64,000 nucleotides of DNA from Escherichia coli (lineage in GTDB: Bacteria; Pseudomonadota; Gammaproteobacteria; Enterobacterales; Enterobacteriaceae), in the NCBI RefSeq assembly GCF_030013205.1, contig NZ_CP122648.1. One strand, written 5' to 3'. This document shows, in pieces, positions 1 through 50,535 of this stretch. Both the position numbers and the translations under genes were made by a program. A model generated the notes under the pieces. That model saw only the letters and a program-made list of their open reading frames with translations. It was not told where the DNA came from and ran no database searches. The first letter of the stretch is position 1, and each line of letters starts with the position of its first letter.

Positions 1-306
<306 letters not shown>

Positions 307-314
307 GAGAAAGT

Positions 315-1535
315 ATGACACCAGGCGGACAAGCTCAGATAGGTAATGTTGATCTCGTAAAACAGCTTAACAGCGCGGCGGTTTATCGCCTGATTGACCA
401 GTATGGGCCAATCTCGCGGATTCAGATTGCCGAGCAAAGCCAGCTTGCCCCCGCCAGCGTAACCAAAATTACGCGTCAGCTTATCGAACGCGGGCTGATC
501 AAAGAAGTTGATCAGCAGGCCTCCACCGGGGGCCGCCGCGCTATCTCTATCGTCACCGAAACCCGCAATTTCCACGCAATCGGTGTACGGCTTGGTCGTC
601 ACGACGCCACCATTACTCTGTTCGATCTCAGTAGCAAAGTGCTGGCAGAAGAACATTACCCGCTGCCGGAACGTACCCAGCAGACGCTGGAACATGCCCT
701 GCTGAATGCCATTGCTCAGTTTATTGATAGCTACCAGCGCAAGCTGCGCGAGCTGATTGCCATTTCCGTGATCCTGCCAGGGCTTGTTGACCCGGACAGC
801 GGCAAAATTCATTACATGCCGCATATTCAGGTAGAAAACTGGGGGCTGGTAGAAGCACTGGAAGAGCGTTTTAAAGTGACCTGTTTTGTCGGCCACGATA
901 TCCGTAGTCTGGCGCTGGCAGAGCACTACTTCGGTGCAAGTCAGGATTGCGAAGACTCCATTTTAGTGCGTGTCCATCGCGGGACCGGGGCAGGGATTAT
1001 CTCTAACGGGCGCATTTTTATTGGCCGCAACGGTAACGTCGGTGAAATTGGCCATATTCAGGTCGAACCGCTGGGTGAACGCTGCCACTGCGGCAACTTT
1101 GGCTGCCTGGAAACTATTGCTGCCAACGCTGCTATTGAACAACGGGTGTTGAATCTGTTAAAGCAGGGCTACCAGAGCCGCGTGCCGCTGGACGACTGCA
1201 CCATAAAAACTATCTGCAAAGCTGCGAACAAAGGCGATAGCCTGGCGTCGGAAGTGATTGAGTATGTGGGTCGTCATCTGGGCAAAACCATCGCCATTGC
1301 GATCAACTTATTTAATCCGCAAAAAATTGTTATTGCCGGTGAAATCACCGAAGCCGATAAAGTGCTGCTCCCTGCTATTGAAAGCTGCATTAATACCCAG
1401 GCGCTGAAGGCGTTTCGCACTAATCTTCCGGTGGTACGTTCTGAGTTGGATCACCGCTCGGCAATCGGCGCTTTTGCGCTGGTAAAACGCGCCATGCTCA
1501 ACGGTATTTTGCTCCAGCATTTGCTGGAAAATTAA
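315..1535 (+). CDS. nagC: N-acetylglucosamine repressor NagC (ROK family)
   Basis: 406-aa ORF MTPGGQAQIGNVDLVKQLNS..; ROK-type CHCGNFGCLE zinc motif; position between nagA and nagD. Confidence 0.95.
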   Translation: MTPGGQAQIGNVDLVKQLNSAAVYRLIDQYGPISRIQIAEQSQLAPASVTKITRQLIERGLIKEVDQQASTGGRRAISIVTETRNFHAIGVRLGRHDATITLFDLSSKVLAEEHYPLPERTQQTLEHALLNAIAQFIDSYQRKLRELIAISVILPGLVDPDSGKIHYMPHIQVENWGLVEALEERFKVTCFVGHDIRSLALAEHYFGASQDCEDSILVRVHRGTGAGIISNGRIFIGRNGNVGEIGHIQVEPLGERCHCGNFGCLETIAANAAIEQRVLNLLKQGYQSRVPLDDCTIKTICKAANKGDSLASEVIEYVGRHLGKTIAIAINLFNPQKIVIAGEITEADKVLLPAIESCINTQALKAFRTNLPVVRSELDHRSAIGAFALVKRAMLNGILLQHLLEN

Positions 1536-1582
1536 TGTGCTTTTATAGTGGCGCTTATTGTTGTCAATATTCTGGGTAGTCC

Positions 1583-2335
1583 ATGACCATTAAAAATGTA
1601 ATTTGCGATATCGACGGCGTGCTGATGCACGATAACGTCGCCGTACCGGGTGCAGCGGAATTTTTGCACGGGATTATGGATAAAGGCCTGCCGCTGGTGT
1701 TGCTGACCAACTATCCTTCGCAGACCGGGCAAGATCTGGCGAATCGCTTTGCCACTGCGGGTGTCGATGTGCCGGACAGCGTGTTTTATACCTCCGCGAT
1801 GGCAACCGCCGATTTCCTGCGTCGCCAGGAAGGCAAGAAAGCGTATGTGGTGGGCGAAGGCGCACTGATTCATGAACTGTACAAAGCCGGTTTCACTATT
1901 ACCGATGTGAACCCTGATTTTGTGATTGTTGGCGAAACGCGTTCCTACAACTGGGACATGATGCATAAAGCAGCCTATTTCGTCGCTAACGGTGCACGCT
2001 TTATCGCCACCAACCCGGACACCCACGGGCGCGGTTTTTATCCGGCCTGTGGCGCGCTATGCGCGGGGATCGAAAAAATCTCCGGACGTAAACCGTTCTA
2101 TGTTGGTAAGCCGAGTCCGTGGATCATCCGCGCAGCATTAAACAAAATGCAGGCGCATTCGGAAGAAACGGTGATTGTCGGCGATAACCTGCGTACCGAT
2201 ATTCTGGCGGGCTTCCAGGCCGGTCTGGAGACGATTCTGGTGCTTTCTGGTGTTTCATCGCTCGACGATATCGACAGTATGCCATTCCGCCCCAGCTGGA
2301 TTTACCCATCGGTCGCCGAAATCGACGTTATCTGA
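1583..2335 (+). CDS. nagD: UMP phosphatase NagD/UmpH (HAD superfamily)
   Basis: 250-aa ORF with HAD motif I (CDIDGVLMHD) near the N terminus; follows nagC. Confidence 0.95.
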   Translation: MTIKNVICDIDGVLMHDNVAVPGAAEFLHGIMDKGLPLVLLTNYPSQTGQDLANRFATAGVDVPDSVFYTSAMATADFLRRQEGKKAYVVGEGALIHELYKAGFTITDVNPDFVIVGETRSYNWDMMHKAAYFVANGARFIATNPDTHGRGFYPACGALCAGIEKISGRKPFYVGKPSPWIIRAALNKMQAHSEETVIVGDNLRTDILAGFQAGLETILVLSGVSSLDDIDSMPFRPSWIYPSVAEIDVI

Positions 2336-2591
2336 ATAGCAACCACGCCTCAGGGCGTGGTTTCTTATTTTTACCCATCACTAAAATTCGCCCATTCAAT
2401 AAAACCCGCCAAAAATTATCGATTCATCAATAAATACACCTCCACACCCTACCCTTTTTCATTAATCAGCAATCACCATTACGTTTTTTATTCCCCCCCT
2501 GCCAAATCGCTTGCGCACAGTGCTGCTTTGCGGCATTTTTTTAAACAAGCAAACACAACAAACAACAAATACCAGGTTAACGGAGAAGGTT

Positions 2592-4256
2592 ATGTGTTCA
2601 ATTTTTGGCGTATTCGATATCAAAACAGACGCAGTTGAGCTGCGTAAGAAAGCACTCGAACTGTCACGCCTGATGCGTCATCGTGGCCCGGACTGGTCCG
2701 GTATTTATGCCAGCGATAACGCCATTCTCGCCCACGAACGTCTGTCAATTGTTGACGTTAACGCGGGGGCGCAACCTCTCTACAACCAACAAAAAACTCA
2801 TGTGCTGGCGGTAAACGGTGAAATCTACAACCACCAGGCACTGCGCGCCGAATATGGCGATCGTTATCAGTTCCAGACCGGATCTGACTGCGAAGTGATC
2901 CTCGCGCTGTATCAGGAAAAAGGGCCGGAATTTCTCGACGACTTGCAGGGCATGTTTGCCTTTGCCCTGTACGACAGCGAAAAAGATGCATATCTGATTG
3001 GTCGCGACCATCTGGGGATCATCCCACTGTATATGGGCTATGACGAACACGGTCAGCTGTATGTGGCCTCAGAAATGAAAGCCCTGGTGCCAGTTTGCCG
3101 CACGATTAAAGAGTTCCCGGCGGGGAGCTATTTGTGGAGCCAGGACGGCGAAATCCGTTCTTATTATCACCGCGACTGGTTCGACTTTGATGCAGTGAAA
3201 GATAACGTGACCGACAAAAACGAGCTGCGTCAGGCACTGGAAGATTCCGTTAAAAGCCATCTGATGTCTGATGTGCCTTACGGTGTGCTGCTTTCTGGTG
3301 GTCTGGATTCCTCAATTATTTCCGCGATCACCAAGAAATACGCCGCCCGTCGCGTGGAAGATCAGGAACGTTCTGAAGCCTGGTGGCCGCAGTTACACTC
3401 CTTTGCTGTAGGTCTGCCGGGTTCACCGGATCTGAAAGCAGCCCAGGAAGTGGCAAACCATCTGGGCACTGTGCATCACGAAATTCACTTCACTGTACAG
3501 GAAGGTCTGGACGCCATCCGCGACGTGATTTACCACATCGAAACCTATGATGTGACCACTATTCGCGCTTCAACACCGATGTATTTAATGTCGCGTAAGA
3601 TCAAGGCGATGGGCATTAAAATGGTGCTGTCCGGTGAAGGTTCTGATGAAGTGTTTGGCGGTTATCTTTACTTCCACAAAGCACCGAATGCCAAAGAACT
3701 GCATGAAGAGACGGTGCGTAAACTGCTGGCCCTGCATATGTATGACTGCGCGCGTGCCAACAAAGCGATGTCAGCCTGGGGCGTGGAAGCACGCGTTCCG
3801 TTCCTCGACAAAAAATTCCTTGATGTGGCGATGCGTATTAACCCACAGGATAAAATGTGCGGTAACGGCAAAATGGAAAAACACATCCTGCGTGAATGTT
3901 TTGAAGCGTATCTGCCTGCAAGCGTGGCCTGGCGGCAGAAAGAGCAGTTCTCCGATGGCGTCGGTTACAGTTGGATCGATACCCTGAAAGAAGTGGCGGC
4001 GCAGCAGGTTTCTGATCAACAGCTGGAAACTGCCCACTTCCGCTTCCCGTACAACACGCCGACGTCCAAAGAAGCGTATCTGTACCGGGAGATCTTTGAA
4101 GAACTGTTCCCGCTTCCGAGCGCCGCAGAGTGCGTACCGGGCGGTCCTTCCGTCGCGTGTTCTTCCGCTAAAGCGATCGAATGGGATGAAGCGTTCAAAA
4201 AAATGGACGATCCATCTGGTCGTGCGGTTGGTGTTCACCAGTCGGCATATAAATAA
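2592..4256 (+). CDS. asnB: asparagine synthetase B (glutamine-hydrolysing)
   Basis: 554 aa beginning MCSIFGV (N-terminal Cys of class II amidotransferases), SGGLDSS PP-loop; ATG at 2592 preceded by GGAGAAGG; the longer track ORF from 2511 is an upstream extension. Confidence 0.95.
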   Translation: MCSIFGVFDIKTDAVELRKKALELSRLMRHRGPDWSGIYASDNAILAHERLSIVDVNAGAQPLYNQQKTHVLAVNGEIYNHQALRAEYGDRYQFQTGSDCEVILALYQEKGPEFLDDLQGMFAFALYDSEKDAYLIGRDHLGIIPLYMGYDEHGQLYVASEMKALVPVCRTIKEFPAGSYLWSQDGEIRSYYHRDWFDFDAVKDNVTDKNELRQALEDSVKSHLMSDVPYGVLLSGGLDSSIISAITKKYAARRVEDQERSEAWWPQLHSFAVGLPGSPDLKAAQEVANHLGTVHHEIHFTVQEGLDAIRDVIYHIETYDVTTIRASTPMYLMSRKIKAMGIKMVLSGEGSDEVFGGYLYFHKAPNAKELHEETVRKLLALHMYDCARANKAMSAWGVEARVPFLDKKFLDVAMRINPQDKMCGNGKMEKHILRECFEAYLPASVAWRQKEQFSDGVGYSWIDTLKEVAAQQVSDQQLETAHFRFPYNTPTSKEAYLYREIFEELFPLPSAAECVPGGPSVACSSAKAIEWDEAFKKMDDPSGRAVGVHQSAYK

Positions 4257-4270
4257 GACGTATAATATTG

Positions 4271-4296
4271 CCCCGGAGAAATCCGGGGCAATTTCA
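4271..4296 (+). terminator. probable asnB terminator hairpin
   Basis: CCCCGGA-GAAA-TCCGGGG stem-loop 15 bp after the asnB stop; weak U tract. Confidence 0.45.
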
Positions 4297-4567
4297 GTTA
4301 CTGGGGCGCTTGTTGATTCTGATATGCAGTAAGGAAATGTTCCGGGTTTGCCACATCGCTGTTTGACAACTCATCACTGTAGGCCAGTATTTCATAGATT
4401 AATTTCCCACCACTATTGTTGAATTCCGAATTTCATCCTGTATGACAAAAGAATGGCTGTAGGGTGGGGAAAAAACACAAAGTAAACAATAATTGACGAA
4501 TATAGCGCCATGCTGTTCGCAACCTAACCAAACAGTCACTTTCGAGCAATTTTCCTTGAAAAAGAGG

Positions 4568-4596
4568 TTGACGCTGCAAGGCTCTATACGCATAAT
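4568..4596 (+). promoter_or_regulatory. sigma70-type promoter of the tRNA operon (-35 TTGACG 4568-4573, 17-bp spacer, -10 CATAAT 4591-4596, GC-rich discriminator GCGCCCC)
   Basis: Hexamers and spacing read directly from the sequence, about 40 bp upstream of the first tRNA; GC-rich discriminator is typical of stringently controlled stable-RNA promoters. Confidence 0.5.
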
Positions 4597-4636
4597 GCGC
4601 CCCGCAACGCCGATAAGGTATCGCGAAAAAAAAGAT

Positions 4637-4713
4637 GGCTACGTAGCTCAGTTGGTTAGAGCACATCACTCATAATGATGGGGTCACAGGTTCGAATCCC
4701 GTCGTAGCCACCA
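4637..4713 (+). tRNA. metT: tRNA-Met (anticodon CAU, elongator)
   Basis: 77-nt sequence GGCTACGTAGCTCAGTTGGTTAGAGCACATCACTCATAATGATGGGGTCACAGGTTCGAATCCCGTCGTAGCCACCA with encoded CCA. Confidence 0.95.
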
Positions 4714-4721
4714 TCTTTTTT

Positions 4722-4806
4722 GCGGGAGTGGCGAAATTGGTAGACGCACCAGATTTAGGTTCTGGCGCCGCAAGGTGTGCGAGTTCAAGTCTCGCCTCCC
4801 GCACCA
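4722..4806 (+). tRNA. leuW: tRNA-Leu (anticodon UAG)
   Basis: 85-nt type II tRNA with long variable arm; anticodon loop TTTAGGT; encoded CCA. Confidence 0.95.
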
Positions 4807-4829
4807 TTCACCAGAAAGCGTTGTACGGA

Positions 4830-4904
4830 TGGGGTATCGCCAAGCGGTAAGGCACCGGTTTTTGATACCGGCATTCCCTGGTTCGAATCCAGGTACCCCA
4901 GCCA
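4830..4904 (+). tRNA. glnU: tRNA-Gln (anticodon UUG)
   Basis: 75-nt TGGGGTATCGCCAAGCGGTAAGGCACCGGTTTTTGATACCGG..CCAGCCA; anticodon TTG. Confidence 0.95.
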
Positions 4905-4938
4905 TATTCTTCGAGTAAGCGGTTCACCGCCCGGTTAT

Positions 4939-5013
4939 TGGGGTATCGCCAAGCGGTAAGGCACCGGTTTTTGATACCGGCATTCCCTGGTTCGAATCCA
5001 GGTACCCCAGCCA
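4939..5013 (+). tRNA. glnW: tRNA-Gln (anticodon UUG), identical second copy
   Basis: 75-nt sequence identical to the copy at 4830-4904. Confidence 0.95.
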
Positions 5014-5028
5014 TCGAAGAAACAATCT

Positions 5029-5105
5029 GGCTACGTAGCTCAGTTGGTTAGAGCACATCACTCATAATGATGGGGTCACAGGTTCGAATCCCGTCGTAGC
5101 CACCA
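5029..5105 (+). tRNA. metU: tRNA-Met (anticodon CAU), second copy
   Basis: 77-nt sequence identical to 4637-4713. Confidence 0.95.
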
Positions 5106-5153
5106 AATTCTGAATGTGTCGAATATGTTCGGCAAATTCAAAAACCAATTTGT

Positions 5154-5228
5154 TGGGGTATCGCCAAGCGGTAAGGCACCGGATTCTGATTCCGGCATTC
5201 CGAGGTTCGAATCCTCGTACCCCAGCCA
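5154..5228 (+). tRNA. glnV: tRNA-Gln (anticodon CUG)
   Basis: 75-nt tRNA with anticodon loop GGATTCTGATTCCGG (CTG); encoded CCA. Confidence 0.95.
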
Positions 5229-5232
5229 CATT

Positions 5233-5262
5233 AAAAAAGCTCGCTTCGGCGAGCTTTTTGCT
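5233..5262 (+). terminator. rho-independent terminator of the tRNA operon
   Basis: AAGCTCGC-TTCG-GCGAGCTT hairpin flanked by A run and followed by TTTTTG. Confidence 0.75.
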
Positions 5263-5280
5263 TTTCTGCGTTCATTCAAT

Positions 5281-5352
5281 GTCGAATGCGATGTTGACAC
5301 GTCTTATCCTTCAAAGTCGGATGCGACGCTGACGCGTCTTATCCGACCTACG
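5281..5352. repeat. two tandem REP-like palindromic units (BIME-like)
   Basis: GTCGAATGCGATGTTGACACGTCTTATCC and GTCGGATGCGACGCTGACGCGTCTTATCCGACCTACG resemble the REP consensus GCCGGATGCGGCG..CGCCTTATCCGGCCTAC. Confidence 0.5.
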
Positions 5353-5381
5353 GTTGGCATGCATCCGGCAATGTTGTAAGG

Positions 5382-6557
5382 CTACAACCCTAACGCATAT
5401 TTCAGCGCCTGACGTTTCAACACGCCAGCACGCTCCGCCGCCATCAAACCAAGATTACGCACAAAACGCAGTGGTGGCAGATTATTGCTGAATCCGGCAT
5501 AAAACAGATCCATACCGCTCTGCATAATGAAGTTATCCGCCATGCGCCGCATCTGGTAACGCTTGAGTATCGGATAACTGGCCCACGCTTCGCCATAGCT
5601 GCGAGCGTTGACCAGAACGTCAATCAGGGCATCGACATCACGATAACCAAGATTCACCCCCTGCCCCGCCAGCGGATGGATGGTGTGCGCGGCATCGCCC
5701 ACCAGCGCAAGCCCTGGCTGCACATACTGCAACGCATGGCGACGCGTCAGCGGAAACGCACCAGCGGCAAGCGGTGTCACGTAACCCAGACGCGACGGGA
5801 AATGCTTCACGATTTCCGCCTGGAGCTGTGCCATATTCATATTCTGCAACTGGCGAATGCGCGCCGGAGAGTCATACCACACCAGCGATGCCCAGTTATC
5901 AAACAACGGCAGAAACGCACGCGGTCCGTCTGGGGTAAATTGCTGCCAGGTGCTATCGCCGGGATCGTTCTCGCACTGTACGCTAATCAACATACACGAC
6001 TGCGCATACTGCCAGGCATGAACACCAATTCCCGCCATCTGCCGCACCTGCGAATTTGCGCCGTCGGCACCAATCACCAGCTTCGCGCGGATCGTTTCTC
6101 CACCCTTCAGTTCCAGTTCCTGAAGATCATCATGGCGATGCAGCGCAATCAGCGAGCCTGGCACACGTAACGTTACTTTCGGATGCGCTTCCAGCGCCTG
6201 CCACAGCGCCTGTTGCAGGACAGTGTTTTCCACCATGTAGCCAAGCAACGGTAGCTTAAGTTCAGCGGCGTCAAACACCACATGCGCCGTTTCCCACTCC
6301 CACGTTTCCAGTCTGCGGTAAGGATGGCAACGCATAGCCTGTACTGCATCCCAGACCCCTAACCCTTTAAGCAATGATACCGAAGCCGCACTAATCGCCG
6401 AGATCCGCACGTCCGGCTGGCTGTCAGCGACAAACGGTGCAGGTTGGGCATGTTCGATAACCATTACCGAAAATCCGTGCTGAGCCAGTCCCAGCGCCAG
6501 TGCGCCGCCGACCATTCCTCCGCCGACAATGGCAATTTCCGTTGGTTGATTTGTCAT
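5382..6557 (-). CDS. ubiF: 2-octaprenyl-3-methyl-6-methoxy-1,4-benzoquinol hydroxylase (FAD monooxygenase)
   Basis: 391 aa; N-terminal FAD fingerprint IVGGGMVGGALA; the track ORF is 2 codons longer (start 6563). Confidence 0.9.
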   Translation of the reverse strand: MTNQPTEIAIVGGGMVGGALALGLAQHGFSVMVIEHAQPAPFVADSQPDVRISAISAASVSLLKGLGVWDAVQAMRCHPYRRLETWEWETAHVVFDAAELKLPLLGYMVENTVLQQALWQALEAHPKVTLRVPGSLIALHRHDDLQELELKGGETIRAKLVIGADGANSQVRQMAGIGVHAWQYAQSCMLISVQCENDPGDSTWQQFTPDGPRAFLPLFDNWASLVWYDSPARIRQLQNMNMAQLQAEIVKHFPSRLGYVTPLAAGAFPLTRRHALQYVQPGLALVGDAAHTIHPLAGQGVNLGYRDVDALIDVLVNARSYGEAWASYPILKRYQMRRMADNFIMQSGMDLFYAGFSNNLPPLRFVRNLGLMAAERAGVLKRQALKYALGL

Positions 6558-6702
6558 GGTCAATCATCCTGTTAGCAATATGCTTTAAGTTTACAGGATT
6601 TTTACCCCCAAGGGCTGATAACGCTCATACTGGTCACAACGGCAGCAAAGCATTACACTATGCGCCCTGCATTCCTGGCTACTATTTCGCAAGAGCAAGT
6701 CG

Positions 6703-49829: not shown

Positions 49830-50535
49830 CTCCGGCATAGCCGGAGGTTTTTCAAATGCGCCTATAAGGCTCTCTTACCAGCCGCGCCCTAACAGGCGCA
49901 CACGATCTGACATTTGCATCCAACTTCGTTACTTACGGCCCGTAAACGGGCTGCCCGGATAGGGAATCGATAACTGCTCTCCCATTTTATCCTCTTCAAG
50001 CTGGTGCTTTATGTAATCCTGTATCTTCGCCGTGTTCTTACCCACTGTATCGACGTAGTACCCTCTGCACCAGAACTCCCTGTTCCTGTATTTGAATTTC
50101 AAATCACCAAACTGCTCGTAAAGCATCAGACTGCTTTTCCCTTTCAGATATCCCATAAACCCGGATACGCTCATTTTGGGCGGGATCTCCACAAGCATAT
50201 GGATATGATCTGCACAGCATTCAGCTTCCAGAATCCGTACGCTTTTCCACTCACACAGCTTTCTCAAAATACTGCCTATTGCTCTACGCTTCTCTCTGTA
50301 GAACACCTGTCTTCGGTATTTTGGCGCAAAAACTATGTGATATTTACAGTTCCATCGGGTGTGCGCTAAGCTCTTTTCGTTCCCCATTGGGACCCCCTTT
50401 TGATTTCTTGTTTGACACTTGCAGTTGCCAGACCGCAAGGTGTTTTAACAAATCAAAAGGGGTTTTAATAACTGGCTCAAAGCTGAAAGCTTTCCGGAAC
50501 CCCCAGCCTAGCTGGGGGTTTTCTGTGCACAAAAA
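49830..50535 (-). mobile_element. IS200-family insertion sequence (boundaries approximate, +/- about 30 bp)
   Basis: Contains a 152-aa Y1 (HUH) transposase gene; upstream of it the characteristic perfect hairpin CCCCCAGC-CTA-GCTGGGGG (50500-50518) and a second stem-loop (CCCCTTTTGATTTG..CAAATCAAAAGGGG) occluding the RBS; size about 0.7 kb as expected for IS200. Confidence 0.8.
49929..50387 (-). CDS. tnpA: IS200 transposase TnpA (Y1/HUH)
   Basis: MGNEKSLAHTRWNCKYHIVFAPKYRR..ADHIHMLVEIPPK.. with HUH motif HIH; near-identical to the IS200 TnpA I recall from Salmonella; the track ORF starts 17 codons upstream. Confidence 0.9.
   Translation of the reverse strand: MGNEKSLAHTRWNCKYHIVFAPKYRRQVFYREKRRAIGSILRKLCEWKSVRILEAECCADHIHMLVEIPPKMSVSGFMGYLKGKSSLMLYEQFGDLKFKYRNREFWCRGYYVDTVGKNTAKIQDYIKHQLEEDKMGEQLSIPYPGSPFTGRK

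Follow-up and report, generated by a model that had tools for sequence, protein, structure and literature searches.

Tandem tRNA genes provide classic cases of gene loss and gain by unequal recombination, reportedly described for the tyrT/tyrV su3 duplicates by Russell et al. in 1970; duplicate tRNA2Gln genes are said to have been reported by Inokuchi et al. in 1979 (cited in PMC4444293). Unequal exchange and slipped misalignment are established routes for tandem repeats of ~100 bp, reportedly in work of the Lovett laboratory among others. Our literature search on unequal recombination at tyrT/tyrV returned nothing relevant, and a bioRxiv mobilome paper considered as a source for it was rejected, as it attributes tRNA signals to RNA/DNA heteroduplex artefacts. 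The duplicate tRNA2Gln genes and their genetics are now classical, and supE is now assigned to glnX (PMC4444293, PMC11148124). In K-12, experiments showed that the metT operon is expressed as a single transcript from which RNase E or RNase G removes the terminator, after which RNase P acts (PMC2241853). All K-12 genes for the CUG anticodon lie in this operon; K-12 has no genes other than leuW, glnU, and glnW for the anticodons of these three, and deletion of the operon required complementation (PMC11480407). Salmonella Typhimurium has the same seven-gene operon, and spontaneous recombination between metT and metU within it has been described on a Salmonella plasmid (PMC5400242). More generally, E. 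coli strains differ in many tRNA genes by one copy, up or down (PMC4539685). Here, we describe a metT operon with six genes and compare it with these systems.

RESULTS

Six tRNA genes in the metT operon

The sequence analyzed, hereafter the window, is a stretch of 64,000 nt from Escherichia coli (assembly GCF_030013205.1, contig NZ_CP122648.1); over its first 50 kb, it matches the chromosome of the pig strain ETEC4079 (NZ_CP122643.1) at 100% identity. ARAGORN identified exactly six tRNA genes in the whole 64 kb, all of them in one cluster at 4637-5228 and none outside it, in the same place and order that the original prediction had given, namely, Met(CAU)-Leu(UAG)-Gln(UUG)-Gln(UUG)-Met(CAU)-Gln(CUG). 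All six are on the plus strand and are base-for-base identical to their K-12 counterparts: a tRNA-Met(CAU) gene equivalent to metT (4637-4713), a tRNA-Leu(UAG) gene equivalent to leuW (4722-4806), a tRNA-Gln(UUG) gene equivalent to glnU (4830-4904), its tandem copy 109 bp downstream, equivalent to glnW (4939-5013), a second tRNA-Met(CAU) gene equivalent to metU (5029-5105), and the sole tRNA-Gln(CUG) gene (5154-5228), which is identical to K-12 glnV and which we interpret below as a putative glnV/glnX fusion. As also predicted, the two Met genes share one sequence, as do the two Gln(UUG) genes.

In the annotation of ETEC4079, the tRNA genes (4637-5228) are located between asnB (2592-4256) and ubiF (5382-6557, minus strand) and run in the same direction as asnB; the neighbors in K-12 are the same, and the surroundings of the cluster in the ETEC4079 record, from nagA to the ent genes, are ordinary core genome. 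Judged by both position and sequence, the cluster is the conserved enterobacterial metT tRNA operon. Much farther downstream, at ~49929-50387 of the window, the same annotation places an IS200C-family transposase gene between uspG and ahpF.

A consensus scan of the region upstream of the cluster gave a promoter-like site on the plus strand at 4568-4596, consisting of TTGACG and CATAAT separated by 17 nt and followed by a G+C-rich stretch (GCGCCCCGC); it is identical in K-12 and has 10/12 matches to the consensus, although one such site is no more than shuffled sequences give. Because shuffles give as many sites, its putative role as the promoter is based on position and conservation and not on the scan. 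The strong terminator that the original prediction had noted after the last gene is a Rho-independent terminator on the plus strand at 5234-5269, identical in K-12, in which a hairpin with an 11-bp perfect stem (5234-5259; AAAAAGCTCGC-TTCG-GCGAGCTTTTT) is followed by a T-rich tail. On sequence comparison, the elements for transcription and processing are unchanged from K-12, and the operon would be expressed in the same way, with one promoter giving one transcript that ends at one terminator, RNase E or G taking off the terminator, and RNase P separating the tRNAs. Just past the terminator, at 5272-5347, there are two tandem 35-nt units that are 83% alike and conserved in K-12, the second of which is an imperfect palindrome (GTCGGATGCGACGC / GCGTCTTATCCGAC); we take these units to resemble REP/BIME elements.

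A single 112-bp difference from seven-gene operons

The K-12 operon had been given in the original prediction as having seven genes, one Gln(CUG) repeat unit more than the window, and this is indeed the case: K-12 MG1655 carries seven genes, including glnV and glnX, and the alignment shows that exactly one 112-bp unit is missing from the window. Against both MG1655 and another seven-gene strain, HUE1, the difference appears as a single clean gap of 112 bp, made up of one 75-bp Gln(CUG) gene and the 37-bp spacer between glnV and glnX. What the window retains on the upstream side is the spacer that precedes glnV in seven-gene genomes (5106-5153, plus strand; alignment with K-12 and HUE1), and on the downstream side it retains the terminator that follows glnX.

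K-12 glnV and glnX are the same over their full 75 bp, and counting the GT shared before each copy, the identical tract of the parental copies is 77 bp long. Because glnV is identical to glnX, the change is scarless, and its junction could be anywhere within 5152-5228, the 77-bp stretch that is the same in both parental copies. The alignment supports the idea that this exact loss of one period is the product expected from misaligned identical tandem copies, whether through recombination or slippage.

Frequency and recurrence of copy-number change in E. coli

Copy numbers were counted in 5426 complete E. coli genomes using short BLAST queries with strict E-value limits of our own design that only an uninterrupted alignment can pass, rather than through annotation of each genome. 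Whole-locus BLAST was dropped for counting since it joined overlapping pieces of seven-gene genomes on one strand only; seven-gene genomes were covered to 100% on one strand and to 69% on the other, and the figure of 1962 records at 80% or more is therefore not a count of six-gene genomes. A 77-nt probe across the glnV-glnX junction had a match in 5268 of the 5426 genomes (97%). The run from the metU spacer through a single Gln(CUG) gene to the terminator was uninterrupted in 151 genomes (2.8%), some of which may be assembly artefacts, and glnW-metU was also intact upstream in 133 of these 151. Together, the junction-positive and single-copy genomes account for 5419 of the 5426.

Expansions were detected as well: a spacer-tRNA-spacer probe applied to the same 5426 genomes revealed three or more Gln(CUG) copies in 27, so contractions (151) are roughly five times as numerous as expansions in this sample. 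Copy states from one to five Gln(CUG) genes were seen, and also three Gln(UUG) genes. The K-12 laboratory derivative GM4792 (NZ_CP011343.2; locus L006, 1702-2224) has a ten-gene operon in which five identical tandem Gln(CUG) genes follow one another every 112 bp. The other tandem pair varies too, with an intact leuW-glnU-spacer-glnW segment missing in 87 genomes, and the O111:H8 strain TW05614 (locus L041, 2362-2869) carries Gln(UUG) in three tandem copies and Gln(CUG) in one, which still makes seven genes.

Among the single-copy genomes are E24377A (NC_009801.1), E2348/69 (NC_011601.1), O26 RM10386, and O157:H7 7636. When 2376 bp of asnB and ubiF were compared in 16 genomes, the single-copy genomes fell on at least five well-separated flank branches, each beside seven-gene genomes. 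Three pairs had discordant copy numbers and zero SNPs in these flanks, namely, the window and the pig strain EC581, O157:H7 7636 and TT12B, and O111:H8 TW05614 and 08-4347, the last of which has an ordinary seven-gene operon. Since single-copy genomes are scattered next to seven-gene genomes in this way, the change is recurrent and independent and not one inherited allele.

Anomalous records at the locus

In the record of MC1061 (NZ_CP195014.1; locus L005, 1940-2138), the operon is down to a single Met gene, which has the flank found upstream of metT and the spacer found downstream of metU, and a single Gln(CUG) gene; leuW, glnU, and glnW are missing. We considered MC1061 as a K-12 deletion that arose in the laboratory and rejected this, since the record is without these sole-anticodon genes; it is probably an assembly collapse and was left out as evidence. 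In the PapRG-04-4 record (locus L034, 830-1010), one Gln gene is annotated as "tRNA-OTHER" with 71 nt and its neighbor has 76 nt; these anomalies are probably assembly indel errors and not real variants. TUM2820 (locus L033, 1411-1547) has an aberrant 137 nt between metU and Gln(CUG), in which the normal spacer occurs twice, on either side of the first 42 nt of a Gln(CUG) gene, and which may be either an illegitimate rearrangement or an assembly error.

Altered Gln copy numbers were also observed in Enterobacteriaceae outside E. coli (loci L009, L016, L024, and L025). Three Gln(CUG) copies are present in Superficieibacter electus and a single one in both Escherichia sp. MOD1-EC7003 and Trabulsiella odontotermitis, and Escherichia whittamii, represented by a low-coverage short-read assembly, has a five-gene operon with one of each Gln type. 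Either copy-number instability or assembly collapse at the locus extends beyond E. coli.

DISCUSSION

The best explanation for the window, to which we assign a probability of roughly 0.9, is a metT operon in which one of two identical tandem Gln(CUG) genes was deleted by misalignment of the copies. The ancestral lineage carried glnV and glnX as identical tandem tRNA-Gln(CUG) genes; misalignment of the two 75-bp copies would then have removed exactly one 112-bp period, either through RecA-dependent, unequal homologous exchange between sister chromosomes or through slippage during replication, as the data fit both, and would have left one hybrid gene that is preceded by the flank of glnV and followed by that of glnX. 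The deletion is recent, as it is common to the pig ETEC/O139:H1 clade and absent from the closest sequenced relative, and it is one among many contractions and expansions that the locus has undergone independently.

The original prediction had allowed for either loss or non-gain of the repeat unit by recombination between tandem copies, and only the first of these held up. For non-gain, six genes would be ancestral and the glnV/glnX duplication would have come later in other E. coli lineages, a history that has nothing in its favor beyond the bare difference in gene count; against it, two copies are present not only in 97% of E. coli but also in most of the family. In a pattern scan covering one genome per bacterial species, 25 loci came from Enterobacteriaceae species representatives, and in 20 of the 25, metU is followed by two Gln(CUG) genes in tandem; E. 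albertii, Salmonella enterica arizonae, Citrobacter, Enterobacter, Raoultella, Kluyvera, and Trabulsiella guamensis are among these 20 (the remaining five have three copies [n = 1], one copy [n = 3], or a locus end that cuts off the operon [n = 1]). In addition, EC581, which is the closest sequenced relative outside the clade of the window and 99.8% identical to it over 25 kb, has seven genes and flanks identical to those of the window: over window positions 3700-6700 (3001 bases), there are 0 SNPs, and the sole difference is the 112-bp unit. Non-gain was rejected on these outgroup and sister-strain data as having practically no likelihood, and by the same comparisons, we read the six-gene state here as a loss. 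EC581 also bears on whether the six-gene allele could have been imported by homologous recombination from another single-copy lineage. Many single-copy lineages exist as possible donors, but the flanks of the window match those of a seven-gene strain with 0 SNPs in 3 kb, and every other single-copy genome sampled is 73-107 SNPs per 2376 bp away; an import would have carried only the tRNA genes, which are invariant anyway. Given the EC581-identical flanks, horizontal import was rejected as highly improbable, and because an import of the tRNA genes alone would be indistinguishable, these genes being invariant, local deletion is preferred on grounds of parsimony. The six genes could, in turn, be an assembly artefact, with the strain really having seven genes and the assembler having collapsed the 112-bp tandem repeat, and some records do look this way: that of MC1061 shows only Met and Gln(CUG) and none of the sole-anticodon genes, the low-coverage short-read assembly of E. 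whittamii has both Gln pairs down to one, and the tRNA genes of PapRG-04-4 are damaged by indels. Against a collapse in the window, at least 14 complete six-gene genomes match it at ~100% over 25 kb in one uninterrupted piece; their accessions span several series, with origins in Belgium, South Korea, and elsewhere, and include the CP122xxx ETEC set, O139:H1 strains W13-16 and P15-25, and K_EC180, while 1604D011 is identical over a shorter operon-end query. The reference genomes E24377A and E2348/69 also have six genes, and four E2348/69 or O127:H6 records agree on a single copy. A typical read is longer than the 112-bp repeat period. Repeat collapse is, from this agreement of sequences, decidedly unlikely as the cause of the six-gene state in the lineage of the window, and deletion of one tandem copy remains our preferred reading.

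There is one Gln(CUG) gene match per chromosome in the lineage of the window, against a median of two in all genomes, and the strain thus has a single chromosomal tRNA-Gln(CUG) gene, which halves the gene dosage and leaves no backup copy. CAG is the commoner glutamine codon in E. coli and is read by tRNA-Gln(CUG); a supE-type amber suppressor mutation or an inactivating mutation in the single gene would remove the only dedicated CAG reader. One could propose that the loss was selected, with tRNA-Gln(CUG) dosage tuned by reversible changes between one and five copies, both tandem Gln pairs serving selection as a fast, reversible dosage dial, and the single copy being advantageous, and so adaptive, in the pig-associated ETEC/O139:H1 clade. 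The single-copy state does persist in a clade of which at least 14 strains have been sequenced, contractions and expansions both exist, and in O111:H8 TW05614, three Gln(UUG) genes occur together with a single Gln(CUG) gene. We consider this proposal unlikely nonetheless, both for the dial in general and for the clade in particular, as the state is rare (2.8%) and scattered, which is what would be expected of a neutral or mildly deleterious recurrent mutation, and persistence in the clade is equally explained by descent. The effect of the loss on fitness is more plausibly near-neutral; the persistence of the clade and the overall rarity of the state suggest a cost that may be small, perhaps not zero.

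Annotators should not treat a metT operon with six genes as an error, since it occurs in ~3% of complete E. coli genomes; at the same time, some records look collapsed at this locus, and tRNA counts from "complete" assemblies should be used with care. The finding itself matters little, being an ordinary recurrent change in copy number, and the locus illustrates cleanly, in nature, how units of a short tandem repeat are repeatedly gained and lost.

In relation to published work, the operon of the window is already known: it is the metT operon in a known kind of variant, and six-gene forms have already been annotated in RefSeq. The six-gene operons of E24377A, E2348/69, O26 RM10386, and O157:H7 7636 have the same Met-Leu-Gln-Gln-Met-Gln architecture as the window, but their flanking haplotypes are unlike that of the window, and they are thus independent events. 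With the K-12 operon, the window shares the position between asnB and ubiF, the promoter region, the gene order, the spacers, and the terminator; it differs by the absence of 112 bp, which leaves one Gln(CUG) gene where K-12 has two, and by a few spacer SNPs and one-base length differences in two spacer homopolymer runs, one in the metT-leuW spacer (4714-4721), which is one T shorter than in K-12, and one in the metU-Gln spacer (5140-5146), which is one A longer, with the tRNA genes themselves invariant. One-copy variation in tRNA genes between E. coli strains, as in the window, is the subject of an earlier comparison, the main text of which makes no mention of Gln (0 occurrences; PMC4539685). 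A published frequency for the glnV/glnX copy-number polymorphism was not found in the literature searched; such a frequency is a statistic and not a new kind of feature. The closest parallels are the classic tandem tRNA duplicates and the metT x metU recombination in Salmonella, in which, as at the present locus, the direct repeats are identical, exactly one period is lost, and reciprocal expansions occur. The classic cases were followed as segregation in the laboratory, whereas the window belongs to natural standing variation over thousands of genomes.
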